Positions 1,110 through 50,500 of a DNA stretch of 64,000 nt are shown piece after piece. Where the stretch lies: the NCBI GenBank assembly GCA_008632985.1, contig QPGO01000106.1, forward strand, positions 124,001 to 188,000, written 5' to 3'. This DNA comes from Psammoneis japonica (taxonomy: Eukaryota). The stretch's first letter is position 1; each line of letters opens with the position of its first letter. Under the pieces are notes generated by a model, which searched no databases, had not been told where the DNA came from, and saw nothing but the letters and a program-made list of their open reading frames with translations. A program made the position numbers and the translations under genes.

Positions 1110-2529
1110 TATAATATATGCTAGAGACAAGCCTGGCTTTTTCTATTGCAACAAGAATTGCAAGACCTCTGAGAAACAACAACAACAACACAACGCCAAC
1201 AACGAACAAAGTTCCAGTCGAAAAAAAAAAGTGAGAAACAACGCGAGAGCGAGCGACGTGGGACGTGGCGTCTGCGTAGACTGTCGTAGAAAACATACTG
1301 CAAGCAAAACTACCGGCAGTGGGGGCGGGGGATGGCATGCAAGACACTATCGTATCGGACCATGGCAGACGACATCAAAAAAGCGCGCGATCGCGATCGA
1401 AGCGGGTGAAGGAAAGCGCAGCTGCATGCAACGCGCCAACTGGGAAAAGAAGGAGAGGAAGAACATGCAAGCCCCTACAAAAAAGGCTTGCCCAACAAGT
1501 GCTCCTCATGCAAGAACAAGAGAGTGGTGATGGAGGAAGACCCAAGAGATGAGAGGAGAGGGCCATCTGTGCACAGCAGCAGTGCCGACAAAACGAAAGC
1601 AAACGTGTGCCTTCATCACTCAGGCAAGAAATGTGCACACTGCTGAGGTCAGACGTTGCAGCTGTCCTTCTTCTGCATGCCACTGGTGTGCATTTTGTGT
1701 GAGGAGACCTTGAGATGCTTGCTCTTGCTTGGCAACATCTGACCTTTTTCTGCCAACACTGTGCATTTTGTGTGAGAGGAAACCTCCTTTGTGCTTGGCT
1801 GCTCTTGCTTGGTGGAGAGCATGCTGCTGGTGGGAGACAAAACAACAACAACAAAATTTCCACAAGAGAGGTGATTTTTGGCAAGAAAATGATGGCACAA
1901 TGCATGCACTGTTGTTTTTCAGGTGCGCTTGATGGCCTGTTTTGCTGTTTCTTTCACTGGATCTTCACTTGTTTGAAAGAGTGTCCTCTTCATTGTGTGG
2001 AAAGAGAGAGAGAGAGCTGAAAAAGAAGAGTGTGACCTCTGCTGGTGTGCTGCTCCATTTTGTGTGTGTGAAAAGTCAGGAAAGCCAACTTCGCAGAGGG
2101 GAATTTCATGTGCAATCAATTCTCTCAAAGAACGACAGATTTGTCAACCTCTGAGCAGGCATCTTGAATGACTTGTCAGTGGTGGTGCTCAAATGGCAGC
2201 ATCAAAGCTCAATGGCCATTGCACAATTTGGGTGGAGTTTTGTGCTTGGCGGCAGAGGCAGGTGTGTGCAGTGCAGCTGCACAAAGGAGAATCTTGAGAC
2301 AGAATTTCATCACTGTTTGAGCAAGAAGCTCCACTTTAGAATGAAGGAAAACAGCCACATTGCAGCATGCCTCGCCACTGGACAACACGGCGAGACCATG
2401 CACAAGCCTCTTGTACGTGGCAACGCGGTGTTGTTGACACGTGCCTGGGAAGCACGACCACAGGAGGGCGTGGCTCTAGGTCTCAGGCAATTCCAGAAGG
2501 ATGCTAAGAGAGCATCCGTGTGAAGCACA

Positions 2530-3290
2530 CTGGCCCGTATAAAATTCAAAGACGCGGAAAGGACACCTTGCAATTGTGGGCAGTCACAATGATTGACCCA
2601 GCAACCAGGTGGTTCGAGATTAAAGAAGTGTCTGCGAAACGCGCAGACGTCGCAGCAAACGTCGTGGAACAAACGTGGCCATGCAGACATCCGTGGCCAA
2701 CCCAGGCAGTTTATGACCGTGGGACAGAATTCATGGCAGAATTTAGCCAGATGATTAAAAGTGACCATGGGATTTTGAAGAAACCCACAAGTGAACGGAA
2801 TCCACAGGCAAATGCCACAGTGGAGCGTGTGCACCAGACACTTGGCAACATGGTGCGTTCCTTTTCAGTGCAGGATGTGGAACTGGATGAAGATGACCCA
2901 TGGAGTGGCATCCTCTCCGCAGTGGCCTTCGCTGTTAGAGCTGCGGCACACACGACCACGCGTGCAAGTCCCATGCAATTGGTCTTCGGACATGATGCGG
3001 TTTTGTCTGTTGCCCATCGTGCTGAGTGGAAGCACATAGAAACCAGAAAGCAGAAGCTCACCCACTTAAACAACAAGCGTGAAAATCAGAAACGCAAGGA
3101 GCATCAACACACCGCAGGGCAATTGGCACTCATCAAACAGGAACAATCCTCTAAATGCGGTTCTGACAGCTGTGCAGGACCCGCCAGAGTTGTCCGTGCA
3201 TGTGACAACGGCACGTTGCGTGTCCAGAATGGAGCGCTGACAGACACGTGCAATCTACGGCAGATTGCACCCTGTCACCAGCAAGACATT
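2530..3290 (+). pseudogene. Retrotransposon integrase core plus C-terminal GPY/F-like region (degenerate)
   Basis: GPYKI...MIDPATRWFEI, YDRGTEF, NPQANATVERVHQTLGNM, SPMQLVFG. Several positions expected to be Tyr read His or Cys (RHPWP, DHGI, CAGP). Confidence 0.9.
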
Positions 3291-4339
3291 CTGTCACTTA
3301 ACGGCCCTGATCATGGGGGAGTTTGCAGCATGCCTTGCTGCTGGACAACATGGCGAGACCGTGCACAAGCCTCTTGCACATGGCAACGCAGTGTTGTCAA
3401 CACGCACCTGGGAAGCACGACCACAGGAGGGCGTGGCTCTGGGTCTTGGGCAATTCCAGAAGGATGCCAAGAGAGCATCCGTGTGAAGCACACTAGCCCG
3501 TCGTCTGGCCCACGATGGCAGCGTGATTCCACACGATGACATCACTCGTGCATGGCGCGTGATGGCTTGATTTGCACGATCCACAATGCGAACGCACGAT
3601 CGATTTGATGCGATCCAAATGCGAACGAACAGGGATTTGGCAAGATTCCCTGTTCGCACGATCCCATTTTCTCTACTCTAAACTGGCTCATAATTTTCAC
3701 AACGACAAAGTTGCAACACATCTTCTTTTTCAGCGCCCAGTGCACACATGGGGCACAGCAGGACCCGCCAGAGTTGTCCGTGTGTGTGACAACGGCACGT
3801 TGCGTGTCCAGAATGGAGCGCTGATGGACACGTGCAATCTACGGCAGATTGCACCCTGTCACCAGCAAGACATTCTGTCACTCAACGGCCCTGATCATGG
3901 GGGAGTGTGCAGCATGCCTCACTGCTGGACAACACGGCGAGACCGTGCATGAGCCTCTTGCACGTGGCTGCGCAGTGTTGTTAACACGCACCTGGGAAGC
4001 ACGACCACAGGAGGGCGTGGCTCTGGGTCTTGGGCAATTCCAGAAGGATGCTGAGAGAGCATCCGTGTGAAGCACACTGGCCCGTCGTCTGGCCCACGAT
4101 GGCAGTGTGATTCCACACAATGACATCACTCGTGCATGGCGTGTGATGGCTTGATTCGCACGATCCACAATGCGAACGCACGATTGATTTGATGCAATCC
4201 AAATGCGAGCGAATGGGGATTTGGCAAGATTCCCCATTCGCACGATCCCATTTTCTCTGCTCTAAACTGGCTCACAATTTTCACAATGACAAAGTCGCAA
4301 CACATCTTCTTTTTCAGCGCCCAGTGCACACATGGGGCA
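3174..4339 (+). repeat. Tandem duplication with 584-bp period (integrase tail + PPT + LTR)
   Basis: GCAGGACCCGCCAGAGTTGTCCG starts at 3174 and 3758. Both units end ...CACATGGGGCA at 3755 and 4339. Confidence 0.95.
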
Positions 4340-5883
4340 ACATGACCAAGACATCATGCCGCTCATGTTGTTTTGTTCTGCTTTGTGCCTTTGCACCCAA
4401 TCAAAATTTGATTGATGTGTTGGTGTGTCTAAAGAAAGCATCACCCACAACAACTTCAAGCAAACATGTCAAATTACAAAATTCACACCACACCAGCACC
4501 ACATCACAAAGACACCGACATGTTTTGTTTTTTGTGTGTGTTTGGCACCAAGAGCCGAGTGTTGTAAAGAGTTTTTTCTTTGAATTCTGAGGAATGGAAA
4601 AAAGCAAAAACATGTCAAAAATGCTGCAAGTCAAAAGGCTGTCCACAAGGCAAAACAATCAGCAAAAAAATCAAAATTCCAGCCTTGTTGCTGACCTCTT
4701 TCAGAGCTTGTGCTGCTGCTCTCTCAGTCATCATGATGGCAGCTTTGGCGCAAAAACAAGCAAGTTCATGGGGCAGCATGGAGCATGATGGTGGCACCAT
4801 TTTCAGTGTGCATGACTCTGCAGTTCATGACATGAAAAAATGCGTCTTTTTTGGAGCTCAATTTTCTCACATGGATTTGGTGCCAGGGGCATGTTGTGAG
4901 ACACAGAACAAAAAACAAGGAAAACCTCATGCTTTGTCAAACATTTCTCACCCAAAGTTGCTGGCATGGCCACAAGAGCATGCCAGCAGCATCTCTGAAG
5001 CAAGAAGAAACACAGGAGAAGGAGCACACTGGCAGTTGACACACCAGGAGATTTTTGTGCAGCTGAGCAAGAAGCTGGTGCTGCACAGCATTTTTGTTTG
5101 AGAGAAGCACCTGGTGTGTGGTGCTCCAAGAACAGCAGCCCGAGGTGTGAACTGACCCATGCTTCATGTTGACCAGGCATTTTCTTCTGACATTGAAGAA
5201 ATCATCCAGCTGATTTTTGGTCTCACAAGAGTTTGTGACATTTCTGCAGAAGAGCGTGCATGCAAACACGTGTGTGCGCCATGCATCGTCATGACAAAAC
5301 AACTCTGTCATGTCATGTCTTCACAGCCCAACAGTGCAAGGTCCATCAAAAGAGCTCAAATGCATTTCTCCCACCAAAAGCCCAGCAGCAAGAGAACAAG
5401 CTCTTTCTTTCTGCAGTGCAAGTGGAAGAGAAGAGCTGCAAACTTGAGGAAGAGAGTTTGCAAAATGAGGTGCTTCTTTCTTGCCGCTCCCCTGATGGTG
5501 TGGGAACATGCTGCATGCTGGGAGAACAGGGTTGAGCAGAAAGCAAAACAATTTTTGGCATCATGAGCAGCTTTCCCCCCCATGACTTTCGTGTGAAGGC
5601 AAAACGGGTGAGGTGTGGGTGAAGGTCGTGCAGCCCACTCCTTGGAGGGCTCCTCTGCTCAACACCATCGCAACACATGAAATTTCTTCAACAGGAGATG
5701 CTTCTTTGAAAGTGTTTCCATCTCACATGGTGGCATCAACTTCCATTGCCACTGATGGTGGGAGCATGCTGGGAGAAGATAGAGGGTCAAGCATGGTCCA
5801 AAAAATTTCTGGCGCATGATCTGTCAGGGGTTGCCACAGCCTTGAATTGCTTGCGCGCTTTTCGCGCTCAAGGAGGAAATGGA

Positions 5884-9047: not shown

Positions 9048-9518
9048 AGTCGGAAGAATCGAATCTAACACCATCGCTGCACCGCGGCAAAGGTGGTCGA
9101 GTCATTGGCATTGACTTGTCACCACAAGATGCAGGCAGCTGTTGTTGCCTTCTGTGTGGCTGGAGGTGGAAAAAATGCTCTCGCTGCTTGTCACCAAGCC
9201 TGCAAATGGCCCAGATTTTGACACGAAGTTCTGGACCTTTTGACTCATCACCAGAGACATGCTCTGCTCTCCCGCTGCAAAAAACAATTCAACAACATTG
9301 ACCTTCACAAGGAAACACAAAGGCACACACCACCAGCACTTGAAACAACTGATCAAAACCATCTGTTTGCTCTCTCCTGCACTTGTGTCTCTCAATCGCT
9401 TCTCTCCAGCTGGCAAGCAGTGCTCTGCTTGTCCTTGAAATCCAAAGCAGTGTGACCATGTCAGATCACCCCATTTGTGCACAAGATCAATTTTGTGCCA
9501 GCTCAAAGCACACTTTCA
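9048..9518 (+). repeat. Diverged, TpA-converted copy of 19658-20022
   Basis: Shared collinear blocks GTCGGAAGAA.CGAATCTAACACC.TCG.TGCACCGCGGCAAAGG, TTGAAACA...GATCAAA, TGCACAAGATCAA and CAAAGCA.ACTTTCA. Confidence 0.8.
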
Positions 9519-9945
9519 AGCAGCTCATCCAAAAGCTCATTTTTGAGGTCGATGACCCAGATCATGTCCTTGCCGAGCGACTCGCCACTTTGTTTTGGTT
9601 TTCGCTGGTGGCAGGCAGCCAAGAAGTGCAACTTGCACCATGAGTGAGAGTGGTCCATTTGGCTGTCCAACCTCTGACATGTTTGCATGCATGCTCTTGC
9701 TTGCTGCCAATGTGATGAATGCGCGCCAGGTTGGGTTGTGTTTCTCAGATTTTGCAGCGGGTGTGGGACAAGCTCAGTGGCACCTTCATCACTCCAGATG
9801 CTTTCAAGAAGTGTCAAGCCACTCTCTGACAGGTGATGGCTGAGTGCAAACAAGTTGCTGCCCAAAGCACCATCCATTGTGAATTCGAGTTGGCAGCAAA
9901 ATGTTGCTGCCATTGGATTTGGTGGAGGCACCAACATCGCCAGAT

Positions 9946-10344
9946 GACGGGCTCCAGTCCCAGGTGGGACTCCGTGTGACATTGGGCCCGTAGAATTCTG
10001 CGTGCGAGCTCTGTGGCAAATTTGTCAAGCAATGAAAATGTGAATGATCGCCAACAGAAAAAGAGGCAATTTTACGAATGCATCTCCTCCTCCACACTTG
10101 CAGCACATCATCAACAGTTTGCCCGGGTGTGTTCTTCAGACATCAAAGAACACACCCAGAGCATTTTCATTCTCACAAATGTTGAAAATGGAAAGCCTTT
10201 GGCATTGCAAAATGGGGAGCATGAAACAATTTCATAGAATGTCACACACAGAAATCTGCGTGCGCGACATGCCGCGCGATCCAAAAAACTCTTGATGTCA
10301 CAGTGCAGCAGTGCGAGGTCCCCCACCCACAGCTGGAACGCGTC
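9946..10344. mobile_element. MITE-like non-autonomous DNA transposon, older converted copy
   Basis: GACG...CGTC termini with imperfect TIRs and a 4-bp TSD AGAT (9942-9945, 10345-10348). Ends are homologous to 15171-15560. Confidence 0.85.
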
Positions 10345-12689
10345 AGATGCAAAGCCAAGATCTTGCAGAATTTCAAAAGCTGAAGAAGCCATGAATCCTT
10401 TTTTTCAAAATCAAAACATGCAATGCCAAGCATGATGCAGGCATCAACAGCATCCAGATTCCCCAGAACCCCGCTGTGAATCCCAAAGAGCAAACTGGTG
10501 GCTGTGTTGCCATCAACATGCTGGAAGATGTTGCAAGCATTTCAGTCAATCTCAAGGAACTCCTCTCCAACAGCTCCTCTTTTTGTCAGTCAATCAAACC
10601 ATGAAGGCAATGCCATCATGACTGACCTCATCCTTGGCGGGGTGACTGCGAGAGAACAATTTCTCTTTGAGTGAGGCCACCAATCTCATTGTGTGTCCAC
10701 CACTTGAAACATCAGTCTCCTGTGCTTGCATCCCCACTCCTGACCAAATTGGATTTGGAGAGAAAAATCAAGCTACAGCAAGAGCCCACTTTGGCATCAA
10801 TTCATTCTGGGCTTTGCTTGGAACACTGTTGGAAGGCAGTGCATGCTCCACACATGTGTGCTCCACTGCTTCCGTGTCAGATGCCAATCCTGCAACACAG
10901 CAACACAGTGTGAGGCCTTGGACAGCACAGCACTCATTGACTTGCATTCCTCTGAAATTGTTGAGCTGCACTCTGTGCTGGGGTCATTTGTGCAGACTGC
11001 GAGTGACTCACATTCATGAAGTGGACACTTTCAACTCATCTCAAGTGTCATGTGGTGCTCTTTGGCAGAGAACACAGAGCATCACAGTGTGTGCAACCCT
11101 GGGATTTGTGGCACTCACCATTTAAATGCAGCAGGCACACCTGCCTGTTTTGAAGAACTCATGCTGGAGATCAGCTGCATGACTCAGAAAATGGCAGCTG
11201 TTCACAGAGAGTTGCAGCAATGGCATGTCTTGAGAGAGGATTGCCCAAGTTGCAAATTCTGCCTTGTGTGGTGGTGCACACCATTGGTTGAAAACAGCTC
11301 TTGTCCTTTCCCACTCATTTCACTCCAACTTGCGTGATCATCCCATCTGCGGCACACCAGCCAGGGCAGCAGAAATTTCCCCTTTTGTTGGAACCAGATT
11401 CGAGACAGTCTGCTTGATGTCTTCAATGAGCATGCTCAAGGTGCTTTCTTTTTGAGTTGCCTGATCATGCATCATCATCATGGCTGTGCATCCAAGGATG
11501 TGTTGATGATGCCTCAAAACAAGCCAATGATTTTTGTGTGCCCCCTCAACCCTCCTCAGTGTTGGAGTTGTCTTTCCACATGCAGGGGGAGACAGCCAAC
11601 TTTGTTGGTGTGTGACCTTTTGAGTGCAGCAGGTCATGAGCTTGAATTGACAAAATGCCTCTTTTGTGTCATTGAGTGGACATTTGCTGAAGATGGTGAG
11701 CTGCACCTGCAACCATGCAACAACAAGATTGACATCAAAATGTGCTCCACAGACCACTCCTTCAAGGGATCAAGCAATCAGCTGCACACTTGCTCTTCCC
11801 ACAAGACCCTTGGCCCCATCACAAAGCCCCTGCTGGCACTCAGATGACTCAGTTTTTTGGGCCTGAAGAAAAGTGCCAATGGTGTGGCAAATTTTCTCCT
11901 GTCATGCCCCCTCAATTGAAGTCAGGCATGGAATCATCATTTTGCCTGCTGCTTGTCTTTGATTGTGCGTGTCCTGCCAAATGCTCATTTCTTGATTGAG
12001 GAGCTGCAGCCAGGAAGTGCAGTGCAAGGGCATGCAGCAATCTTTGCCCAGTGTGAGTGTGACCAAAAAACATGGGATGATGGTGGAGTGTTTTCTGCAG
12101 ATCCTGTTCCCTTGGTGGTGGCAGTTTTTGGTCTCCTTGGGCATCAAACAAGATGTGGCGCAGCTTGCGCAGTTCCTCCAACAATTGTGTGGGGCTGGAC
12201 AACCTCACATTTTGCATCACATTGCAATCTCTTGTTCAACACAGTTTCATTTGGGGACCCACACTGGCTTTCTGCAAGATGTTTGCTCCAAGTTGCCCCG
12301 TGCAGAATCAAAATGGTTCATGTCACTTTGCTCTTTTCTTGCAGGAGTGAGTCGTGCATGCATCAACTTTGACAATGCCAGTGTCCTCCTCTTGCAGTGG
12401 GACAATGGCCAGTGCATCATTTGTGTGGTGCTGGAATTTGGTGTTTTGTTGCAGCCATTCAGGGGTGTGATGGGCAAACTGTTGTCAGCTGTTCCTTTGT
12501 GTTCTCGCTGTTGCAGATGTCATGCTGCTTCCCAGCGGGTTGTCCCTCCACCACCACAAGCTTGGTGACAGCCACTCTCTTCTCAGCAGCTCCTCTGCTT
12601 TGAGTCAAATTGAAGAGGTGTGTCCCTCTTTCTGTGCATCTTGTGCAGCCGGCAGTTTTTGATCCATTCCTGACTTGGAAAGCTTTCGG

Positions 12690-13180
12690 GTGACATTTCT
12701 GCCACATGGTGCAACCAAAGGACCAAATGTCAGCATGATGGCCTTTTGCAAGGTGAGCAATTGCGCCTCTCAAAACCATTTCTGGTGCAAAGAAGCCAGG
12801 GGTTCTGCCCCAAAACCCATGGATGCAGACGACTTTGCTCACTTTGTCCAAACTCTGGGCACACCAACCCTTGACATTGTTGCAAGTGATGTTGCTGACA
12901 CAACACAGCATCTTTGAAAGGATGGCATTTTTGGTTTCAGATTGTCCATGTGAGTGACTCTGTTGGAATGAAGATGCACAGACAAGAGGCTCAAGAACAC
13001 CCAAAGCAATTTCCTTGAGATGCATGTCACCACAATCATGTGTGCAATGCTCACAAAACTGTTGCAGATCCAAGTGACTTTGTGAAAAGCCACAATGTTG
13101 GGGTGAATTGCAGTTTTCAGTGTGCTGGTTTTGCTCTTGATGCACTCAAGCTGAAGGCAGTTTCTTGATTGCAAATTTCT
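12690..13180 (-). pseudogene. Ser/Thr protein kinase relic
   Basis: Across shifted frames, in the correct subdomain order: IHPNIVAFH, LHSNRVTHMDNLKP (HRDLKP-like), GRTPGFFAPE and ADIWSFGC. Confidence 0.75.
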
Positions 13181-14048
13181 CTTGGGTGTTGAAATGGATG
13201 CTGACATGAACTTGGGAGCAGAACCAGGCACCCATCACTTTCCCAATCTTGTGGTGTCCAAGGTGCTGTGGGTTTCTCTGATGCCACAGTTGATGGGCCC
13301 AACTGCAGCACTGTTCATTTTGTCAGTGGCAAAGAGGCATTGCAGAGCTGCACTTGCTTTTTTTGTTGTTTTCCCTTTTGCTTTTCCTGATGCTCCTGTT
13401 TGTTCTGCCTCTGTTTGCACACTTCAAGTTCCTTGACAGCTTTGACAAGCTTTTGTTCAATCCTCCACTTGGTTGCCATGGTGTCAACTCTGTCTTGGTG
13501 AGCTTGTTCAACAGTGTTGCTGAGTTCTTGGCCCAGCTCTTCCTGTGGTGCTTTTCTCTTGTTGTCCTCCTGCAGTGAGGATGGAGTTGCAATCAACTTG
13601 TTTGGAAGGTTGGACCTGAACTCCTTTCCATTCCATTCTGAAGATCACCTCCTTTTGACAAAGGCAGATGGTCTGTGCCGAGGCATTCCTTGCGAGGACA
13701 TGGTTTGCTCAATGCACGTCCATGGTGGTGAGCAGGTGAGTGCGCATTCATGGTGACAACCGTTTTTGTCAAAAGTGCAAAAGGAGTTGATGTTGGTTCC
13801 CTTGATTGTGAGCCTCGCAAGCCCCTCAGGAATGTGGTTGCACAGTGCGGTTGGCATGAGGGAAATCTTTCGTCAGCATTTCTCCCAGTGGTTCGCGGTG
13901 AGCCATGAGTTCGGATTTTGTTTGTGGGAGTTTTCGAAATGCTTTGTCAGAGTGTTTTTTTTTTTTGAAATTTTGTTGGGTCAGTGCAAACTCACTGTAG
14001 AACGTGCCTGCCGGCCAACAATGCCGCATGAAACATTGGTGCTTTATC

Positions 14049-15800
14049 TCACTGGTTCGTGTGACGTGAAAGAATGTGCAAGATGGTGCAAAGTTTGCAT
14101 TGCAGCAATTCAATGTCTTTGTCACTCATGTGCCTGACAAATTCAAAAGCAGGAAGCATCCTTTCGCTGTTCACATCTTCTGTCGGCGTGTGCAACGGCA
14201 TGCTTGGCAGTTCTTCCAACTGTTTCGCTGGTTCACACAGCACTTCCGATGTCATGTTTGTCTTGATGTCAAGAAGCTTCTGGAGCTTCGACACATTGTG
14301 CTGGCTCACATTGTCCTTGCTTCCTTTGGCCAAGATGCTAAATTTCCAACCATCATCCGTGGCACACGAAAGAAGAGCCAACACTGATCCAGTCTTATCT
14401 TGAAGCTTGCTTTCGGGTTTGACCATGCTGCAAATGGCAAAGTCGTGGCCCGTCGTGGGATTTGTGAGTTTGCACAGAATTCGAGAGCAGCAAGCAGCCA
14501 TCTCTTGTCCAGAATGGCAATTGACGACAAAGGCAATGTGCTGAACATTGGCCGACACGGTTGGAAGGGACATCAGAATGCTTTCGTCAGTGTGAAAGAA
14601 CAGTTCTCATCTCTGCGGCTGTCTCCACAGTGCTGAACAGCTTTGTCCCTGGAAACAAATTGACGAAAGGATGTGATCTCAATGTCCTTCAGACATTTGT
14701 CCAGACAAATGGCGCTCAAGTCCAAATCAACTTCTTTCGAGGAGACGGTCCATGCCGCAGCAAACTTGATGGATTGAGTTGACTCAGGAACACAGTCATT
14801 GAGCAACATGGACCTGCCTGGCCCCACAACAGCCGAAGCCTCCCATGGTGGAAAAATGTCTTCCGTTGTCTGTGCATTCAAGTCGTGGGTGTAACTTTGG
14901 AGGTGCGGTGACAAACCTCCAAAATCGCGCATGTCTGGGTGGCTTTCGTCGACAACTTCCACTGCCCCAAACATCGAACAATTTCGACAAATCATGCGGA
15001 AAAGAACAATGGCAGTGGCATCAGCACCGCATGACTGAGGACGAATCTCGTGTGCGCTGCTGGCAGCACCGTTGGGAAAGAAGCATGCTCGAATGGGTGT
15101 CATTTGATCAAGGCTTGCGTCCCGAGAGAGTGCTGTTAGAACAAAATGACAGGCCAGGCACTCCTCAGCAGACGGGTTCCAGTCCTAGGTGGGACTCCGT
15201 GTGACATTGGGCCCGTAGAATTCTACGTGCGAGCTCCGTAGTACGCGAATTTAATTAATGGATATATTTATCTTCAACATCAAATAGACGGCCAAGTTTG
15301 TGGTACAATTATGCCTCTTGCCACTCGACTTTTTTGCAAATGCGCCTGCCCTACGCGATTCTTAAGACATTATAGAATCGCGCTGTAACAAAAAATGTCA
15401 AAAGTTGTTGGACGGATCGCTCAATAAGTGCACCGTAAAATGACAAAAAATATCGAAAAAATCACGTAGAAATCTACGTGCGCGACATACGACGTGATTC
15501 AAAAAACTGTCGATGTCACAGTTCAGTAGTGCGAGGTCCCACCTAGACCTGGAACGCGTCAGCAGCTTTCCGTAATTCAACAAGGCAGTCATGCCCAAAA
15601 CTGCTTTTGTCTTTGTCTTCTTTTTGGCACAGAATCACCCCTTCATCAATGGCTTGAGGGTTTCCGGAAAAGACCGAGTGCTTGAACATTGCCTTTCCGG
15701 CATGATCGACGGCAACGCAGCTTGCATCAACCTGCGGCATTGACATTCTTCCGATGATGACCCGGATTCCAGTCCCGCTTTGGGCACCACGACTCAACCA
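14049..15800 (-). pseudogene. Tandem TerD-domain protein relic interrupted by a MITE
   Basis: VDASCVAVD...SVFSGN and VDLDLSAICLD...VSRDKAVQHCGDSR resemble TerD repeats. Removing the MITE and one TSD copy restores the frame (...VELRKAA|EECLACHFVLT...MTPIRACFF). Confidence 0.7.
15171..15560. mobile_element. MITE-like non-autonomous DNA transposon, young unconverted copy
   Basis: Imperfect TIRs GACGGGTTCCAGTCCTAGGTGGGAC / GTCCCACCTAGACCTGGAACGCGTC and a 4-bp TSD AGCA (15167-15170, 15561-15564). Precise excision restores the host reading frame. Confidence 0.92.
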
Positions 15801-16099
15801 TTGGCACGCATGGCCACAATTTCACCACAAAAATGTGCTGTGATTCCTTTCAGTTCTCGTGTCAACCCAAAGCACTGGAATCAAGAATGTTCACAGTCAC
15901 AACTGACAGCCTTGAAAAGAGAGTGAGAAAAAATCGACCACGCGAGAGGGTGCATTGTGGTGATTGAGCGGGCTTTTCTCACAGTGAATTTGGTGTGTTT
16001 GACAGACACAAATTTTCAACCATGACAGAGAGCTGGTTGCTCAGAATGTGATCTTTCATCACCCATCACAGATGCTGATTTTTGTGCTGTGCTGAGGCC

Positions 16100-19000
16100 C
16101 GACCGACCCTCTCCCCGAACTCCTCAGAGAGACACTCCTTCCGTGTCAGACACTCTCCCCTGTTTGCTGCGAGAACATGCGACATTTGTCCCTGCCAAAT
16201 CCAAGCAACAAAAGCAGCCTGCTTTCCATTTTTAATTTTGTTGTCAATGTGTTTGTCAAACAAACCAAAGCTTTCCCACCAACCAAGCACCAAGTTGCAT
16301 GCCAGTGTGATCTTCTGAGCCTCTTCAGTGCTCTCATCATTGTTGCTTGGTTGGTCACCATCATCCTGACCCTTGCTTCTCCTCCCTCTTCTTCATCATC
16401 CTCGTCATTGCCTGGCAGCTCTGGCGTGGCTTGTGTTTTTGCTTCCTGCCTTCTGTGCAGGTTGCTTCCTGGCTGCCTCTCTCTCTTTCCCTTTTTTGCT
16501 TTTGTCCTTCTTGTTCCTGTGGCATTGCCCATCAAACTTCACAGCCATCTCACTGGCCCTGTTTGGGCCTCGCCACGCAGCTCACTCTGTTGATGCTCTC
16601 TGCTCTCCTTTGTCTCCCCATGACTCACACTGTGGCGGGGTTTGTGCAGACAGGATCTGGTGGCTGCTCTTCGTTCCAATCATCCTGCCCCCCCCATTGA
16701 ATTTTCCAAGCCTTCACTGCCTTGTGTCCCCACATCTCTTCCAGCAGCTCTCTGGAGGAGGCAGTTGCCACAGCCTGGATGCCCACTTTTGTAGAAAAAG
16801 CACCACAGAAACAGCGGCAGCAGAGAGGCTGCAGATTGCAGCATTTGAAGATTTGTTGGGCTTTTGGGGGGCACAGCAGCAATGAACACAGGAATTTGCC
16901 ACCAGCAAGTGCTTGAACAGGCTGCCAAACAACTTGGCTTGGGAGAGGAGGTCAACAATTGTCTGGCCAAGAGGACAAGGCACACTTCTTGATTCAGCCA
17001 TTGGATGGCCACTTGTGTTGCACTCCACTCATCAATTGAGGAAATGGCCTGCAATGACAAGCAAAACCTCTTTTCAAGTCCAGCACTCACAAAGGTCATT
17101 GTTTTGTTGCCAGGGCACTTGAGCCAGCACCAGTTGCTGCTTTGGCGTGGCACTGCCATTTTTGGTGGTGCCGACCCTGGCCAATTGCTGTGTGCTCCTG
17201 CCACACATTGTGTGCTGGGGGCTGGTGTTGGCTTGTTGCTCAAGTTGCAGGAGAGGACAGAAGTGCAGCAGCACCTTTAAATGCAGATTCTGGATTTTGC
17301 TTTAACTCTGGGACAATCACACCACTGGGGTCATGGCTGTCATCCTCCATCTCACATCTTGCCCTCTCCAAAACAGCACACCTGCCACTGAGCTGCAGGA
17401 GGTGGTGGTCAGTGATGATCAAAACAAAACCCAAAATCCGTTTTAAAGTGCTGCTGTGCTTCCACCCTGCAGCTCTGGCAACAAGCCAACTCACACTCCC
17501 AGCACACTGCACGCAGCAGGAGCACACAACACCTGGCCAGAATTGGCATTGCCGTCAGGTGATGCCATGCCAAAACAACTTGCAATGGCGCACATTCCTC
17601 TGGCAGCCAGATGCCAAGCTTTGTGCACACTTGACTTGACCGTGGCCAACCAATTGTGCAATCTTTGTGCAGAATGTGCAAGATGTTCATCAACTGAGCT
17701 TGACAAGTGTGACCTGTCTCTGGCTGGACAGTTGTCTGCCCCTTTTGAAGCAAATGGCTCAAACCTCCGCCTCAGCATCATGATGCTGGGAGGACTTCCT
17801 TGTTTTGGAGTCATGTCCATGCACATCATCATTGCGCATGTCCCACAACTCCCACCATTGAAACCAAACAAAGCCTCCAATTGTGGCTGCCCAATCCAAT
17901 CATTTTTCCTTTGTCAGACAGCAAGGGTTGACACACACTGGTGGATGACAGACAAATGTTGGTTGCACATGCAGGCATCATCCCACCCTCATCAGTGGAT
18001 TCATCTGGTGGCCACTCATTGACGCTGGAATCATCATCATCAACACCAGCAGAAGGAGCACACACAGGCAAGAGCTTTTTCCCTCCTGAGAAATGAAAGT
18101 GTGAGTTGATGGCTGCCTTGAAACCTGCCAAGAGAGGGGCCACAAAAGGGCAGGTGTGGTCACAATCATTCCTGCCAACTCCAGATTCATTCATGTGATC
18201 TGTCACACTGACCTTGAGAATCAACCTTTTGCCATCTGGATTTCTTTTGCCCAGCACCCAAGCATCATGTTCCAGTTTGCAAAGTTCTTCCCGCAGCTGC
18301 ATGAGCTTTGGAAGCTGTTCCTCTTGCATGATTTTTTGACAGTTGGCAAAGTTAGCCTGGTGCCCTCTGCAGCCTTTTCTGAGTCAAGAATCTCCTCCAT
18401 GGCACTCAGAAATTTGTTGTTGTCAGAAGCCAGCAATTTCGCTGGTGCAGCCATGCAAGATGAAAGGAATTTGGTTGCCATGTCAACATCGTTGGGCTCA
18501 GCGTGATGCACGATTCCATCCCTGCATTTTGAGCCAAGCAATTCACAGGTCTTGGCAGAATTTGCAACCAACAGGAGGTCACAGGAGGAGCCACTGCTAT
18601 GTTCCCACAAAAGAGCATCAAACACATTGCTTGTGCCATGCAGCAAAGTCTGCCACCCTCCTGGTTCTTGGTCCTCTTCCAAAAAATGGCAGCCATTGGC
18701 ACGCTCTGCCAAGGGACAGCAGAAAAGTTGACAGGTTGGAGACTTGGGGATCTGGCGGCCGTTGCTGTGATTTGCCCCCCCCCCCCCCCCCCCAATGGCG
18801 AACTTGTTGCTTGTCAGAGCAGAACTTGCTCCGGATTTTGTGCAGCCCCGGCTGGCCTGATGCAGATGGATGGCATTTTGGCTCAATGCAATTTTTGTGC
18901 AGCACCCTCCCAAGACCTTTTCTCCCATGTCCAGACCTTGTCAAGTGTTGTGAGAATTTGAGCATTGCAACAACAGTCAGAGTCAAATTCTGCCCGGACT

Positions 19001-19190
19001 TCTGCTTTTCTTAGAGCAGCAGCCTCAGCAATGGCCTTGGCCAGCATCCTGTTCAACTCATCTCCTTTTGTCAGATTCAATCCAGAGGTGGGAGATCCTG
19101 GAGGAACTGTTGGCCTGCCCATCGTGGGAGCTGCGGGGTGTCCTGCTGAACAATTTCCCACATCTGTGCTTCAAATCGCATTTTTTTGGT
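16100..19190 (-). pseudogene. Long decayed ORF of unidentified family
   Basis: Successive protein-like minus-strand fragments (e.g. LNRMLAKAIAEAAALRKAEVRAEF, KLMQLREELCKLEHDAWVLGK) ending in an acidic/basic tail. No family recognised. Confidence 0.4.
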
Positions 19191-31265: not shown

Positions 31266-31731
31266 ACAATATTTGCTCACGATGATCACAAGAGCATACA
31301 AGCCAGTTTTGATTATTCCAATATAGTACATATTATTTGCAACTCACTTTGACAATGGATGTTGGCCTTATTAGACTAAACCTTAGAAGATCAATTCGAA
31401 GAGATAGTTTCACACTTGCAATGGCAGTCGTTATCGCTTTGATTGACTGATATCGTAAGAATGAACCGACTTTCGTCATCGATAGATGCTCGTCAAACAG
31501 TACTGCACTTAGAGTCTCTATATTTATGTACAAATTGCTACCCAAAACACGGTGATGTTCAGTGCTCTCCTGATCATTATGTATTGTTTCTTGATTTCGT
31601 TTTACTCCACGTGGGAGGGCCTGGCAGCCTTGTTTCAATCTGGTTAGCCATGGAGCAGGAAGATAACACTGAGCATCGCTCAAAAAATTCAAAATGTGCA
31701 ATGAATACGACGGTAATAATGGATTGTCCGA

Positions 31732-43359: not shown

Positions 43360-44414
43360 GATGATTTCTTTCCTCTTGCGTATTATTCTGTTTTGTGAAA
43401 GAAAGCATGGTAGAAACAAAAAGTTTGTTAGGAATGTCCAAAGAAGGCGACCAAGACAGCAGCAGCCAACTCAACCGTTCTATCGGTTGGGTCTCTAGTA
43501 GCTAGCTAGATTGGTACTCTGGCGGTCGCCGAAGAACAAAACAAACAAACAGATGATTATCTCGGACTTACAGTGCTGTTGGGCTTGATGTTCCGCAAAT
43601 GAACATTATGTGCAAGGTGCAAGGCAGTGAATTATTAGTGACACGCCGAGAACCCTTTTCTCTCTATACAACAGTACTGTACTGTACTTCTTGAAACATT
43701 TATTGGACCGTCAAAGACAATGTCTCGGTGATCCTACTATTAAAATATTCACACGACCGCAGAAACGAATGCTAATACTTCGTGAAACATTTATTGGACA
43801 GTCAATGACCATGCCATGATGCCTCGGTCATCCTACATACTTTGTACTTTATTCTTAGAGTACTTCTACGTTCTTAATCGGTACGGTGGAAGCATTATTT
43901 AAAACAACTTTCTGTGTGATTTAAGCTACTTATAATAATGAAGTTACTGTAACACTCCTTCCTACTGTACAGTGACAAATTAGGGTAAGAACAATAAATG
44001 TTATGAAACATTTATTGGAGAACATGCAAGGCAGTGCTTACCGGTAAGTCTCTTTGTTTACCACAGCGACACGCGCGCAATTTTTTTTTCGCGTGCGGCG
44101 AAACGTGGCCACCATCATGTCAACAACACAACAAATGGAACGTCGCCGTTCCGAGTCATTACAACACATGGCACATCCATGCCACACGGGGTGATCGTTG
44201 GCACGGCAAGGTGTATTATGAAAGCTTGGTTTGGTTTGTTGCTGTGTTGGTGTTGCTTTTTTGCGTCTTGTCTTGCCTGCTGTCGCACCGGCACTTCTTG
44301 CATTTCGACAGGTGCGACGGACCGTCATCAACAGAATCTGTGCTGTTGTTTTTGTCATCCACAGGATGGAATCTGGTGGAACAACAGCAAACAAACAGGT
44401 GAGCATGCATCACA

Positions 44415-46320
44415 ATGCCATTGTTCTGTTGCGTTGGATTGCCCTTTTTCCCATTTCACACTCCCTCAGAGCTTGCCCTTGCTCTTTGTGGGGGCAGCAG
44501 CAGCAGTGGGATCAGCAGCACCTCTGAAGCCAGCAACAAGGCCTCTCATTTGAGTGACACTGACTTGTCATTTGGAGCCCATGGGAACTTTTGGACAATT
44601 TCTGATGACGAGGACTCTGTCTCATCTTGCGACTCTTCCGGGTGGTCCATTGGCAGCAGCGAGGGCAGCAACTCGGATGACGAGCTCGGGGATGAATTTG
44701 AGGAAGAACCCAAGAAGAGAGCCAGGTTAGTTCCATGCAATGAGCGCCACCCTGACAGGAGGAAGTGACACAAGGACCCAACCAAACCTTGGGTTCAAGT
44801 CACTCCTGGGCTCCTCCTTGCTTGGTTTGGAGTCATGTTTGTTCTGGCTGCGATGAAACTCCAGTGGCAAGACCTGCTTTGGATGGAAACTTGCAACTTG
44901 GCAGTGCCATGGATTCAGAACTCCATGCCCCGAAATGCCTTTGTGCAGATTCAAAGGTTTGTCCACTTTGTTGACAACAGAAAGTTGCCAAGGCACGGCA
45001 CCTCAAGATGCCGCCAGTTGCAGAAGACAATCCCCTTTGTGAACAAAATTGGCAAAAGACTCAGGGACGGGTGGGTGATTGGAGAGAAGCTGGCAGTCAA
45101 TGAGTCCATGATTCTCTGCAAGGGCAGGTCAGGGCTGCAAAGTGTGTTCAATGCATGCCTGCCAAACCAATCAAACACGGCACAAAAGTGTGGGCGCACT
45201 GTGTTGCACCAAAACTGGATGTCTCTGTGGCATTTTGCATCTGCACCAGCAAGGAGAATGATGATGCCTCACCACTGCAAGTGGTTCCAAGGTTGTTGTC
45301 CATGGACCCTGAACTGGTTTTGTTGGGCAAAGGATGCAAGCTGGCGTGCACCGACAATTTCCACACGTCGGAAGAGCTCATGAAACTTGTGCATGACACG
45401 CACGGCATGTTGATGGTTGGCATGGTGAAGATGTTGAAGAAAAAGGGAGCATTGTCCAAGGTGCCTCGTGGGTGGTTGCGATGGGCTCAGAAGACTGTGA
45501 AAGGAAACAAGAGCAATGCGGCTGGGTTTGCAGTGCAGGCGACGACTTGGAAAGACAGAAAACAGGTTGGCGTGTTGCACAACCACATGGTGGGTGCACC
45601 AGGAAGTGCAAAACATTGTGGTGGGACGACAATGAGCACAGTTGAGTTCCTGTCTCATCCCATGTGGTCATCCCCGAATGCATCAACTTCATGTGTGCTG
45701 TGGATGAAGAAGACAGGGAGACTGCTGCTGACTGGTCCATCAGCTTGAAGGGAAATTGGTGCCACCTCTGCATCATGTGCCATTGCATGGACGGGGTGAC
45801 ACACACGATGAAAGTGATGACAAAAAGGCTTGCAACAGTGGGGCACCCCTTTCACAAACATGCTGAGCCCACATGATGGAAATTCAAGTGGATGATGGAC
45901 CTGGGCATGCAGTGCATCAACAAAGGTGCTGGCATGAATTGGGCGGACATGAATGACCAAACGAAAAAGCCGAAATGGATCCGACAGAGGGCGTGCACAC
46001 CTTGCAGCTGTGGAGAATGCTTTTTCTGTAAACATGGCCCCACGCATGATGGAAAGACCCACCAACCGAAGAAAGGGAGAAAGAGGCCTGTGTGGGAAGA
46101 AGACCTTGTGCATGATGAGAAAGCGATGAAGATGTTTGACCGCAGCAAAAATTGCTGTGATTGCATCAGGAAGAACAGATTGCATGTGCCAGATGCAAGC
46201 TGCAATGCCTTGAGAAAAAGATGCTGTGCATCTTTGCGTGGGTGTAGAAAATGTGGCAAAGCAATTTGCAAAGCATGCTGGCCAGAACATGATCACCCAG
46301 GGCACATCAGGAACAGGTGA
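44415..46320 (+). mobile_element. piggyBac-like transposase relic
   Basis: MPRNAFVQIQRFVHF, LAVNESMI, MPAKPIKHGTKVW, TDNFHTS, WKDRKQV, FMCAVD and a Cys-rich C-terminus. Frameshifted; no TIRs found. Confidence 0.85.
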
Positions 46321-47544
46321 GCAATGCACAACATCAGTGCGTGATGCCGAGGCATGACATGAAATGCATTGAATGACAAACAACAATGGAAGAGATGACA
46401 ACATGGGCTTGCTTTGGAAAAAAGACAAAAGCTTGCCTGCATCCATCGCTTTCGCCCCCCATCCATCATTCAAATCCAACATTGTCAAACAGGCGCCACG
46501 ACAACTGTTTCCAAATCCTTCTTTCCAAAGGAGCCGACTTCTTGAAAGTGGTGTGTGTCCTTGCCATTCTCATGGTGTCAGCACTGACACCTGAATCCAA
46601 GCAACAAACACTGCTGTGAACAGTCTGCTGCCATGCCATCAATGGTGCTGGACTCTCTGTCAACTCTGATGCAACAAATGAGCGCAGCCAGAAACTCGCG
46701 TTAGCATGAAATGTGTTGAGTGACAAATGACAACAACGCAAGAGACAGCAATGTAACTTCCTTTGGGGATGAAACAAAAGCTTGTCTGCATCCCCCCCCT
46801 CTGCAATTCAAAGCATGATTCACAGCTGCAATGTCTCAAATGGCGGCAACAACAGCAACATCATGAATGCAGTCAAATTGCTGCAGCAGAAGAAGCGGCA
46901 ATGACAGGAAGCACATTGTTGAAATCAAGAGCTCAATTGGATGATGGAAGACATCACCTGCTGTGGTGATTCTGCCACAATGATGAAGACAATCACATCA
47001 TTGTGGCTGTTGGCATCAGAGCAGATGTGGTGTGTGGTGTGTTGTTTTGAAAAAAAGTGCATCTGCGTGACCGTGCAAAAAATCTGCAGCAATCCGCGCT
47101 GGCAAACAAAGAGTTGCAACACAATTGTCATTTGTTTGTTGGACCATCAAATGCTGCACCATGTTGTCTCGGTCATCCTCTGTTCATGGAGACTGACAGC
47201 GCCAGCAGGGATGACGCACTGCGCTTGGGCTTGTCGGTTTGGGGGGGGAGAATTTTTTGACAAAAAATGGGATGGGGAATCCCCCCCCCCCCCCGACAAA
47301 AAGCCGGGGGGGGCAGTTTTTGGAAAAAGTCATCTGACGATCAACCAAGCATGTCATGCTGCTTTAAACCAACACTCCACTTGGCACCTGGACAGGAGCC
47401 CTGCCATCACACGCAAGAAGGAGAGAGAGTGTTGAAGTCTTGTTTGATTTTCGTTGAACAAGTTCCTCAAGTTTTGGGCTCACCAGCCCATTGGGTCTGC
47501 CATGAGTGCAAAAAGATTGATGCTGCTGAGGTGGCCACCAGTGG

Positions 47545-50500
47545 TTGGTGGTGTTCATGAAGATCAGTGGTGACAGCTCACCTTTGGCTCCCCATTGTTT
47601 GCAAGCACTTGCACAGTTTGAGTTTGACTTTCCTGGGGAACTCCATTTGTTCCCCTGCTGCCCTGGTTGGAGAAGCGGAGTTGACAAAATGGTCATGGAA
47701 TGGACGCTTGAATGTGCTGATGAGGGCATGGGCTCTTCTTCTGCAGCTCAAGGAGTCATTGAAGTTCTTCAGCCACATTGTCGTGCTTTTTGCAATGCGC
47801 GGTGTGTGCAACCTCAAGGCATTCCCCAATCGTGGCTTGGCTGTGCTCCAAGTGAGAAGTTGTTGATTGAAGCGCACTTCAAAATTGTGATGGACAACCA
47901 CAGCAAATCTGCTGCAGGCATCCCTGCGGCAGCTGCCAACAATGCTGCTTTCCTGCTTCTGTGGGCTGTCCACAGGAGCAATGCTGATCCCGCAGAAGCA
48001 CACAATGGAAAATGCGAGTCCTGGGTGAGACTGGCGATGGGGTGTGGGACGAGTTCCACACAGCTGAGACCAGCACAACTGGCCATTGTGCAAGTGACTC
48101 ACCCTGTGTGAAGTGTCTGTGCACCATGTGTGGCTGATTCCAAGCAAGGGCTCAAACTCCGCATGTCTCACTGTTGTGCATGCTCTGTGCAAAATGGTCT
48201 CACAATTTTGCACAACACAGAAAATCTCTGCCCAAGAACTCACACCCTGTTCCTGCACAGGTCAGGGCAGATGCACAACAGTTGAGCTTCAGCAAGATCA
48301 TGTCCATTGACACATCATGTGAGGCTCCAAAGTGGCTGGCAATTTGGAAGGAACAGCAAATGTGTGAGACACTGCTGATTGCCACCAAAGCTGAATGCTT
48401 TGAACCATTGATGGCCTTTTTTGCTTTGTCTGACAATCACGCTGAGGTGCAATCAGCATTTTTGCAGCTTGTGTCACAAGGGTTCAATCCCATTTTTGCT
48501 TTCTCTGATGTGCCCCCCTCTCTCAAGATTGTGGGATGATGGAGGAAACATCAGAATCGACATGTCAAGACATTTCCAGTGCAATGGAGTCTTTTCAGTC
48601 ATGGTGAAAAACGGCAATCTTCCAATTCTTGAGATGCAAGGAAAGCTGGAGCACCTTGCCACAAGTTAGAGTGCAATTGCTGGAGTTGACACCCTTGAAA
48701 ACTCTTTGCAAGAGACGAGTGAAGCAACTCACACCACCTCTCTCAACATTCAGCACCTTTGATGATGGCACAAGGAACAAAACACCCACCATCATGCTTG
48801 GATCACTTGCTTGTCCAAACATTCTTGTGATTCATTTGGGCAAGATGCAAAACAAACCAGAGATTTTGTTGAATTTGCAGAGCCTTTTGTCTGAAGAAGA
48901 CATTGCATTTGTTGGTGGCAACATCCGGGATGACCTTGCAAAATTGAAGAAGAGATTCAAGGATGCAGGCTTTGCCATGAGCAACTCAAGAAATCTGGAA
49001 ATGACGGCAATGCACTGTCAACTTGTTCAATGCATGAAGGGGCAACACGAAGAGTCTCATTGTGTGCCCACATGTGAGCAACATGCCTGATGATTGAGAG
49101 CGCATGATTGACACAGAAGATGAATCTTTGGAACACTTGGACAAACTTTTGGATGAGAGGGAAAGCAATGATGATGAAGGGGCTCATTTTCTGGAAGTGA
49201 TTGACCTCAAATCTGCTGACAATGAAGCAAATCTAACAGCAGCGCAGGAAATGCAATGAGCTGCAGCTAGTGGGGCAGTCCAGTCACTGCTTGAACAAGC
49301 TGCCAACAAGCCAGCAGCTCAGTTGATTGCAAGTGGTGCTGCAAATCTTGACAATGCAGCTGATGGCCAAGAATTGCTGCCACAAGTGCCGGGCAATGCT
49401 TTCCATTTTGTGTCAGGTGTGCACGCACGGGTGCTTGTTTTCCAACACTGGAAAGCCACTTTTTTGCAGCTCTGTGAGACACTGTGTTTGTCTTTGGCAA
49501 CAATGACAAAAAAGCAGTTGCTGCTGCATTGTCCAGGAAAGGAAAATTGTGGCAACATGCCATGAACCATCACAGTGTCTGAGGTTCTTTGCAGGCAGGT
49601 CAAAGTGGTGTTTGATTGCTTTCAAGACAAGATTGACTCAAAATCTCAGAAGCCACTTTTCAACTTGCAGGCCAGAGCCAAAGCTGACCAAGCCTTGTCA
49701 AGGTGGGGCAAGCTGTCGGACCCATGGGGGGCTTCATTTTGTGCTCCCAGTTTGGATGGGGTTGGAGAGCCAATGATGGACAAAGACAAACTGCAGCAGC
49801 TGCGGCATTGTTTCTGGGATGCAGGGACAGCTGAGTTGGTGGGGCATTTGCAGGGCCCAAGATCATTTGGTCAAGCCCCTGCTGTGGGACCAACACTCTC
49901 TGCATCCATGCTTCTGAATCACCATCACTGGCACAAAGAGCTGGCACACATCTGAGAGGCACTGACCAGGGTTCCCAACCACACATTGCTGCAACTCACT
50001 TTTTTGGCAAATGCAACAAACAAGTTGCTCAGATGGTTCCACAAAAGCCCCAAGCACACTGGTTGGGCAGCACATGATGAGGGAGTCACAATGACTTGGT
50101 TTTCATCTGCAGCTGTTGGTGCAGAAGCATTTGGCTGTGAAGAGAGCCAAATCCATTGTGGAGACTCATGGCCTGCTTGATGGACTTCAACCTGCCATGC
50201 ACACCTCTTGCTCACAGGGCCAAAGAAGAGCACCTGCTGTTTGAGGCACTGCTTGAACAATTGATTCAGGATGGCTGCTCCTCAGGCACACGATGAGATG
50301 CTTTCCAAATGACACATGAATTGTGAAGTCTTGCTCATGACTTCATCAAGATCCCACCTCAGCTTTTAAGAGGCAAAAGATGAAGATTTTCATGTTGGCC
50401 ACTTGATTGCTCACTGCAAACAGTGGCAAGTTAATGCAAACAAAGCATCTGCAATTGAAGAGGCCATGTGAAAGATGAAGTGCTGCAGGCACTGAAGCAC
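47545..50500 (+). pseudogene. Relic of a large protein with a 3'-5' exonuclease-like domain and a transposase-like C-terminal region
   Basis: LLSEEDIAFVGGNIRDDLAKL (WRN-exo-like), GNAFHF, DSKSQKPLFN and KLSDPWG. Heavily degenerate; family assignment is from recollection only. Confidence 0.5.

Follow-up and report, generated by a model that had tools for sequence, protein, structure and literature searches.

Copies of a Ty3/gypsy-type element

We analysed a 64-kb stretch of the genome of the diatom Psammoneis japonica (contig QPGO01000106.1 of assembly GCA_008632985.1, positions 124,001 to 188,000), hereafter called the window, which carries ordinary eukaryotic genes and a retrotransposon with three copies of its long terminal repeat (LTR). 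Judging from its layout, this element (2361-4339) appears to be one old, internally deleted Ty3/gypsy-type insertion, the 3′ end of which has been re-duplicated. The LTR copies, which begin at 2361, 3324 and 3908, differ from each other almost exclusively in the states of the four dinucleotides TA, CG, CA and TG, and the origin of these differences is the subject of this analysis. The element and its borders comprise the following features:

2357..2360, plus strand: ACAT, left copy of a candidate 4-bp target-site duplication; the same four bases stand at 4340-4343, and a 4-bp match is weak when taken alone
2361..2538, plus strand: 5′ LTR stub, i.e. the first 178 bp of the LTR, joined directly to the 5′-truncated integrase; 90.5% and 90.4% identical to 3323-3501 and 3908-4085, with homology stopping at 2538
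2539..3323, plus strand: remnant of the integrase core and C-terminal region of a Ty3/gypsy-type pol (Pfam rve, E 2e-5; 25.2 bits, below the curated 32.6)
3324..3755, plus strand: 3′ LTR copy A, 432 bp, TG...CA; other genomic copies enter unrelated flanks at 3757-3760
3758..3907, plus strand: re-duplicated last 150 bp of the internal region, a copy of 3174-3323, from the alignment of the tandem units
3908..4339, plus strand: 3′ LTR copy B, from BLAST and alignment
4340..4343, plus strand: ACAT, right copy of the candidate target-site duplication, directly after the last LTR

The tandem units 3174-3755 and 3758-4339 each consist of the last 150 bp of the internal region followed by the 432-bp LTR, and they share 94.3% identity over 582 bp, as found by BLAST against the window and by a repeat finder. 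The corresponding 583-bp back-joint is present in two contigs of X1, a public sequencing run of the same organism. With a length of 432 bp, running from TGCAG to GGGCA and flanked by ACAT on both sides, the LTRs look as expected of a Ty3/gypsy element. The overall divergence of the LTR and tandem copies is 5.7-9.5%.

At the amino acid level the integrase is 38-58% identical to nine loci from metagenomes, and no relative of it was found in the viral contigs database. In the relative L001 (58% identity) the domains follow the order RVT_1, RNase H, Integrase_H2C2, rve. The full pol order was read in L001 only, since the window copy retains just the integrase remnant, which abuts the 3′ LTR. The nine metagenome loci are not TA-poor, their observed-to-expected ratio (O/E) for TA being 0.69-1.17. 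In P. japonica the element family is very abundant, with hundreds of copies: the depth in run X1, summed over the element, is 9,000-58,000 versus 66 in the flank, and 2,122 contigs were found in total. A marine-sediment metagenome run, X5, holds 12 contigs that are related to the element over 2568-3674, mostly at less than 95% identity.

A preliminary description of the locus, based on a manual alignment of the first 178 bp of the three LTR copies, had counted 15 variable dinucleotide sites and stated that 14 of them have no states other than TA, CG, CA or TG, i.e. the pyrimidine-purine (YpR) steps. Column enumeration after alignment leads to the same numbers. The 23 variable columns (22 transitions and one transversion) make up 15 sites, and at 14 of them every state is a YpR step. 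The examples quoted, TA/CA/TG at 2505/3468/4052, TG/CA/TA at 2435/3398/3982 and CG/TG/CA at 2373/3336/3920, are exact to the letter. CG is involved at five sites, TA at five, and at four sites only CA and TG oppose each other; two of the five TA sites are TA/CA/TG trios. The sole exception is AA/AA/TG at 2422/3385/3969. Copy B has TG at 3969-3970, and the other two copies as well as ~100% of the family contigs read AA. One may speculate that an A>T transversion created a new TpA in copy B, which subsequently turned into TpG.

The tandem pair displays the same signature over a longer stretch. Its 33 differences fall into 25 sites, 22 of which have YpR states only, leaving just three outside YpR steps. 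The ratio of transitions to transversions is 31:2, and YpR steps hold 29 of these transitions, compared with a background of 0.557 (binomial P = 4e-6; the background share of YpR positions in the binomial tests is 0.55-0.56). CG stands against TG or CA at ten sites, CA against TG (a double difference) at seven, and AA against TG at one. Comparison of the 5′ stub with each of the 3′ copies gives transition:transversion ratios of 17:0 and 16:1, with 17/17 and 15/16 of the transitions in YpR steps (P 4e-5 and 1e-3). Among the kinds of change listed for the family, 115 of 117 in the reads of run X1 and 24 of 27 in run X5 are transitions.

As controls we used three duplicates in gene blocks of the same window: a pair of nitrate-reductase paralogues (2.4 kb, 80.6% identity), a 450-bp pair and a 240-bp pair. 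Here the ratio of transitions to transversions is close to 1:1 (256:227, 33:26 and 11:18, respectively), and the transitions in YpR steps (107/256, 13/33 and 5/11) are at or below background (P 0.9-0.97). The 240-bp pair, 41515-41759 and 41798-42033 with 81.6% identity, is located between two Pfam-matched ORFs (open reading frames), in a 1-kb bin with a TA O/E of 1.06. The unusual spectrum is seen in relics of gypsy, piggyBac and miniature inverted-repeat transposable element (MITE)-like elements inside particular domains (see below), and an ordinary one in the gene-block duplicates.

Decay of CpG to TpG or CpA accounts for about one third of the variable sites, that is 5/15 in the trio and 10/25 in the tandem pair. 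It does not account for the doubles: given 30 CpG sites that are intact and 10 that are singly decayed, 0.4 CA/TG doubles would be expected via CpG in the tandem pair, versus seven seen. For intact, single and double sites, a model of TA decay with ~20 ancestral TA and a loss of 78% per copy gives 1.0, 7.0 and 6.0, and 2, 5 and 7 are seen. Since the fitted CpG decay is 13% per copy, TpA decay in the element is, per site, roughly ten times faster than CpG decay, and both are far above the rest of the sequence. Because CA and TG are reverse complements, a 2-bp inversion from CA to TG was considered as well. This candidate was dropped, since the counts are fitted by the TA-decay model and TA/CA and TA/TG differences of a single step occur frequently.

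TA-free domains of the window

The differences between the LTR copies are only a small part of the phenomenon, which is real, regional and much larger than these three copies. In the whole window the O/E is 0.41 for TA, 0.74 for CG and 1.38-1.39 for CA and TG, and the composition is mosaic. Four domains, which make up 21 of the 64 kb, have a TA O/E of 0.02-0.03, a CG O/E of 0.17-0.32 and values of 1.7-1.9 for CA and TG. In the gene blocks the TA O/E is ~0.58 and the CG O/E ~0.97. The domains, to which no strand is assigned, are:

1477-5779: first TA-free domain, interrupted by the element at 2361-4339
1477..2360: TA-free host DNA upstream of the element; 1 TA in 884 bp, TA O/E 0.02, CG O/E 0.17
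4340..5779: TA-free host DNA downstream of the element; 3 TA in 1440 bp, TA O/E 0.03, CG O/E 0.20
9067..15136: domain D2; 10 TA in 6070 bp, CG O/E 0.32, with weak TerD and kinase relics
15574..19011: domain D3; 7 TA in 3438 bp, CG O/E 0.24
44218..51589: domain D4; 14 TA in 7372 bp, CG O/E 0.26

A run of 2875 bp in D2 (11123-13998) contains no TA at all. The domain borders are sharp: over a few hundred bases, the density changes from 0-4 to 35-60 TA per kb. It is important to note that the total YpR fraction remains constant throughout the window (0.23-0.24). In D2, D3 and D4, CA+TG goes up from 14.9% to ~22%, with a drop of TA from 4.0% to 0.2% and of CG from 5.4% to 1.5-1.9%. The gain in CA+TG thus equals the combined loss of TA and CG, which is the balance expected from transitions inside YpR steps. 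Across the 64 1-kb bins, TA correlates with CG (Spearman 0.71) and inversely with CA/TG (-0.77). The O/E values of CA and TG lie within ~8% of each other, i.e. there is strand symmetry.

The upstream flank of the element (2200-2347) is single copy by depth (66 in run X1). The element itself has an intermediate composition, with a TA O/E of 0.21 and a CG O/E of 0.77. Its immediate flanks are more depleted, so the DNA was TA-free before the element entered it, and the element has decayed from then on.

Little can be annotated in the depleted DNA. Of 117 stop-free frames in the TA-poor blocks, six matched Pfam; the matches are a piggyBac-type transposase, two weak TerD frames, a weak kinase fragment, and a frame at the edge of a gene block that matches Rhodanese and, weakly, Tachylectin. 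The remaining frames inside the TA-free domains had no Pfam match. The window holds 76 stop-free frames of at least 150 amino acids, many of them overlapping on both strands in the TA-free domains, where the lack of TA precludes TAA and TAG stops and spurious long frames result. The TerD matches (E ~1e-4) are in two adjacent stop-free frames on the minus strand at 14052-15184, and the kinase fragment at 12462-13145, all in D2. Together, they may be relics of a foreign gene cluster. At the other end of the scale is a very TA-dense spacer (43834-44059) that borders D4. It is adjoined by a 440-amino-acid frame on the minus strand (42148-43470), which is composed of six DUF285 repeats (E 4e-134).

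Direction of change and competing explanations

The end state already constrains the direction of change, since DNA devoid of TA cannot come from CpA to TpA changes. More direct evidence is provided by the integrase and its family, and by three further features:

15168..15563, plus strand: young, TA-rich MITE-like copy of ~396 bp with 28-nt terminal inverted repeats, an island in TA-free DNA
9946..10346, plus strand: old, TA-poor copy of the same MITE-like element, from the pair alignment
44769..45380, plus strand: piggyBac-type transposase relic in D4 (Pfam DDE_Tnp_1_7, E 4e-11)

The integrase protein was aligned with four of the nine metagenome loci; L004 and L007 were dropped owing to stops in the matched stretches, and L006, L008 and L009 were left out. 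At nine columns, two or more of the four homologues have Tyr. At three of these the window copy has CAT or CAC (His), at four TGC or TGT (Cys), and GCC and TAT occur once each. Over its 262 residues, the window integrase has two Tyr, 12 His and six Cys, compared with 6-9 Tyr, 3-6 His and 0-1 Cys in the homologues. Variants of the element family were taken from contigs of public runs, and the following counts refer to 40 of 134 variant rows. The family majority reads TA where the window has CA or TG at 2707 (99%), 2793 (79%), 3685 (70%), 3961 (57%), 2688 (55%) and 3441 (54%); the reverse, TA in the window and CA or TG in the family majority, was not found among these rows. The family letters give homologue-like codons, namely TAT (Tyr) at 2688, GTA (Val) at 2707 and AAA (Lys) at 2793. 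At ten further places the family majority is CG and the window CA or TG, which we read as ordinary CpG decay.

The two MITE-like copies show the same direction. The young copy forms an island with 26 TA in 403 bp (15171-15573; TA O/E 0.85). In the two well-aligned ends, nine TA of the young copy correspond to four CA, four TG and one TA in the old copy, and there is no change in the reverse sense (8:0). Both terminal repeats of the young copy have TA at a position occupied by CA in one repeat and TG in the other of the old copy, whose repeats are no longer detectably complementary. Finally, the piggyBac relic has no Tyr at all, versus 1-8 in 20 homologues, and it has TGC at the two best-conserved Tyr columns. 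Some of the piggyBac homologues (P0146, P0151 and P0153) are themselves poor in Tyr and rich in His, with 1-3 Tyr and 6-10 His in ~130 residues, and a few homologue rows have Cys or His at columns where others have Tyr. These sequences hint at a similar decay in other assemblies.

We propose, with a probability of about 0.8, that two context-bound decay processes acting on silenced mobile DNA explain the copy differences in this one deleted Ty3/gypsy-type element of a diatom genome. In the first process, TpA would become CpA or TpG by an A:T to G:C transition at a self-complementary step, on either strand. In the second, CpG would become TpG or CpA, which is the ordinary fate of methylated CpG. 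CA/TG would be the common end point of both. A CA versus TG double difference would arise wherever one ancestral TA is struck on different strands in two of the copies, and such opposite-strand hits would account for the many doubles and for the TA/CA/TG trios. The last 150 bp of the internal region and the LTR would subsequently have been duplicated in tandem. The process is regional, being close to completion in the four domains, with adjacent genes, intergenic spacers and the recently inserted MITE-like copy keeping their TA. What the sequence itself shows is the signature, the direction of change, the confinement to domains and the balanced YpR composition. The preliminary description had proposed that the LTR copies record a context-bound spectrum in which hits to TA on one strand or the other lead to CA or TG. 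This part is supported by the Tyr codons of the outgroup, the family contigs and the TA-free domains; what that account did not do was to separate the second, CpG-directed process. For its suggestion that the LTR start TGCAGCA derives from TGTAGTA there is no evidence either way, as TGCAGCA stands in all three copies and no alternative letter occurs among the variant rows listed.

As to the chemistry, TpA decay might be due to enzymatic adenine deamination with inosine read as G, as proposed for the alga Bigelowiella natans (Mettrop et al., bioRxiv 10.64898/2026.01.13.699255); we regard this as the most likely route, though with a probability somewhat below one half. The main alternative, a thymine modification that mispairs with G, would leave the same footprint and seems rather unlikely. 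For the CpG sites we infer deamination of 5-methylcytosine in methylated transposon DNA.

Could cytosine deamination alone explain the pattern? Under that assumption the ancestral states would be CG or CA/TG, and CpG would first decay to TpG/CpA, followed by a step resembling fungal repeat-induced point mutation (RIP), or dependent on non-CpG methylation, with TpA as the derived end state. The five of 15 sites that involve CG, and the ten places with a CG family majority, would suit such a scheme. Likewise, TG/TA/TG at 2532/3495/4079 is readable as TG to TA, and the contigs at 3468 are almost uniformly CA. Yet the oldest relics are TA-free and not TA-rich, with TpA/ApT at 0.03-0.04 and (CpA+TpG)/(ApC+GpT) at 1.96-2.09 in the domains, that is, with both RIP indices inverted. 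Moreover, conserved Tyr codons have turned into His or Cys, the MITE-like pair is 8:0 for TA to CA/TG, and the CpG route yields 0.4 of the seven doubles. We consider this scheme highly improbable. A genome-wide bias of TA and CG towards CA/TG without regional targeting is very unlikely, too. Here, selection would keep TA and CG in genes and regulatory spacers, and old neutral DNA would drift to the TA-free state. In fact, the gene blocks are also TA-poor (O/E ~0.58), and so is the family majority sequence of the element. On the other hand, the duplicate 41515-41759/41798-42033 has a ratio of 11:18, no YpR excess and a TA O/E of 1.06 in its bin, the domain borders are sharp, and a single-copy TA-free flank and a TA-rich MITE-like island occur side by side. 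Regional targeting is therefore favoured, because this gene-block duplicate (41515-42033) lacks both transition bias and TA loss and because the domains end abruptly.

The changes could also have been made in RNA, by ADAR-like A-to-I editing of double-stranded retroelement transcripts prior to reverse transcription, in which case the LTR variants would have been inherited. With the preference of ADAR for a 5′ U, UA would be changed to UG. The same point is raised in the Discussion of the B. natans preprint. The many shared variants and CA/TG dimorphisms in the family would be in line with such a history. But the same signature is present in DNA-transposon relics (piggyBac-type and MITE-like) and in single-copy flanks, and the LTRs of one insertion, as well as a local tandem duplicate, differ from each other. 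ADARs are not known outside animals. Taken together, editing of RNA is scarcely plausible as the source of these differences. The chance of an artefact is just as slight, be it systematic base-calling errors at modified bases or polishing of a high-copy repeat with reads from other copies. With hundreds of family copies and the depth difference between element and flank described above, mis-polishing of the LTRs is conceivable. However, a 2475-base contig of run X1 with a depth of 66 has no differences over the flank 2200-2388, although X1 may be the source sample and thus not independent. In addition, the TA-free domains extend over 21 kb including single-copy sequence, the Tyr to His/Cys changes in coding relics are coherent, and the related contigs of run X5 again show mainly transitions.

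Several observations weigh against the proposal of two decay processes. The GCC codon at one of the nine Tyr columns is not explained by the model. The family counts cover 40 of 134 variant rows, and the family majority is not proof of ancestry. At the trio site 2505/3468/4052, 97.6% of the contigs at 3468 have C, i.e. CA, so that the family plurality at this site may be CA rather than TA; this value is ambiguous, since the three LTR copies compete for contigs and copies bearing TA would map to 2505, not to 3468. Several CA/TG dimorphisms of the family are unequal (87:13, 85:15), and TA or CG intermediates are nearly absent, e.g. at 3023-4, 3131-2 and 3245-6. They look like inherited subfamily differences, which they fit better than independent decay of each copy. 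Some differences of the window copy may accordingly be family haplotypes or effects of assembly polishing and not local mutations. Furthermore, the B. natans preprint reports a process without a G:C to A:T component and does not mention CpG, whereas CpG decay is co-located with TpA decay in our window. It may be a separate process in the same domains, and the systems of the diatom and of B. natans need not be the same. The conclusion on the spectrum is independent of whether the differences are local mutations, haplotypes or polishing effects.

Known systems, neighbouring genes and implications

The closest parallel is found in B. natans, a chlorarachniophyte and thus a rhizarian. According to the preprint, 230 of 231 mutations in two viral insertions of mutation-accumulation lines were A>G or T>C, all of them at TpA and ~1000x above background; de novo mutations at ~1e-7 per site per generation in such lines mark this type of hypermutation, and adenine deamination at TpA is the proposed mechanism (Mettrop et al., bioRxiv 10.64898/2026.01.13.699255). 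As described there, TpA turns into CpA or TpG on either strand and only in foreign or mobile DNA, and the long-term footprint is TpA depletion together with CpA+TpG enrichment in clustered 1-kb windows, just as in the present case. When the thresholds of the preprint are applied, 21 of the 64 1-kb bins of our window qualify, in runs 3-6, 10-15, 17-19 and 45-52. The differences are nevertheless considerable. The host is a diatom, and the DNA affected consists of an LTR retrotransposon, a MITE-like element, a piggyBac relic and DNA that cannot be annotated, in contrast to the giant-virus and virophage insertions that the preprint gives for B. natans. Depletion is near total, with a TA O/E of 0.02-0.03 compared with 0.45 in the region of B. 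natans derived from a nucleocytoplasmic large DNA virus (NCLDV), and four clusters occur in 64 kb, compared with 124 stated for the whole B. natans genome. Lastly, the preprint describes de novo mutations, and our evidence is the footprint in the sequence.

RIP of ascomycete fungi resembles the process in that it is a transition-only hypermutation bound to a dinucleotide, which affects mobile or duplicated DNA and destroys its coding capacity. Its signature is a high TpA/ApT and a low (CpA+TpG)/(ApC+GpT), for which there are customary thresholds. RIP converts CpA into TpA and thereby generates TA-rich DNA, whereas in our case TA is removed and CpA/TpG accumulate, hence the inverted indices. 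Moreover, RIP acts on duplicated DNA, and the TA-free flank of the element is single copy by depth. Fungal RIP is excluded by its own indices, which are 0.03-0.20 and 1.57-2.09, respectively, in the element and the domains taken together. Decay of methylated CpG, as known from vertebrates and plants, likewise changes CG into TG/CA in transposon DNA, and the relic domains have a CpG deficit with an excess of TpG/CpA (CG O/E 0.17-0.32 versus 0.97 in genes). Diatoms do methylate transposons, as stated in a published study (PMC9998398). Such decay covers only the sites derived from CG, with 0.4 of the seven CA/TG doubles, and it cannot remove TA. Editing by ADAR and APOBEC in animals leaves clustered, deaminase-type transitions in mobile elements, and the 5′-U preference of ADAR matches TpA. 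These enzymes act on RNA or single-stranded cDNA, in contrast to the DNA-transposon relics and resident single-copy DNA that are affected here, on both strands equally. In full-text literature searches, fungal RIP papers and the B. natans preprint were all that was returned, with no other report of TpA hypermutation in diatoms or elsewhere.

Outside the TA-free domains, the nitrate-reductase paralogues are located at 28795-31266 and 55413-57868 in inverted orientation (80.6% DNA identity). At the protein level the second one is 80-84% identical to the enzymes of diatoms such as Ditylum, Odontella and Thalassiosira, none of the matches being near-identical, which speaks for a diatom and against B. 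natans as the source of the window. On the minus strand, at 38268-41329, a P450-reductase-like ORF with flavodoxin, FAD and NAD domains is followed by a radical-SAM ORF. The best homologues of this pair are single proteins of 1000-1150 amino acids with all four domains, and the two ORFs are probably one fused gene. The best named match of the P450-reductase-like protein is from a diatom (42%). A further region, 26001-28000, has an AT skew of -0.44 and long overlapping frames on both strands, without a Pfam match.

TpA is depleted almost universally, for reasons that have long been unclear. So far, a directed process from TpA to CpA/TpG has been demonstrated in a single preprint, for one alga, and the window suggests that a diatom, a member of a major and experimentally tractable group of phytoplankton, has a process of the same kind. 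The case adds a new lineage, and a CpG component, to a type of hypermutation that has only just been described. The footprint is far stronger than in B. natans, and it is found on ordinary transposons alongside CpG decay. This opens up questions that can be tested, such as which enzyme or base modification is responsible, how the domains are chosen, and whether the process is shared across lineages of the supergroup of stramenopiles, alveolates and rhizarians (SAR). There are also practical consequences. Dating by LTR divergence is badly inflated here, considering that only 3/25 of the tandem-pair sites lie outside YpR steps. In TA-free DNA, gene prediction will yield spurious ORFs, and homology searches for relics should allow for changes of Tyr to His or Cys.

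We consider it possible, though somewhat doubtful at present, that diatoms carry a domain-targeted DNA editing defence directed at TpA, which would mirror fungal RIP, would be homologous to or convergent with that reported from a chlorarachniophyte, and together with CpG methylation would erase both self-complementary YpR steps. If such a defence is shared, it would be old within the SAR supergroup. Invading DNA would be eroded until kilobase tracts hold no TA, and TpA editing would be a general, hitherto unrecognised cause of TpA depletion, of false long ORFs and of ~tenfold overestimates of LTR age in such genomes.

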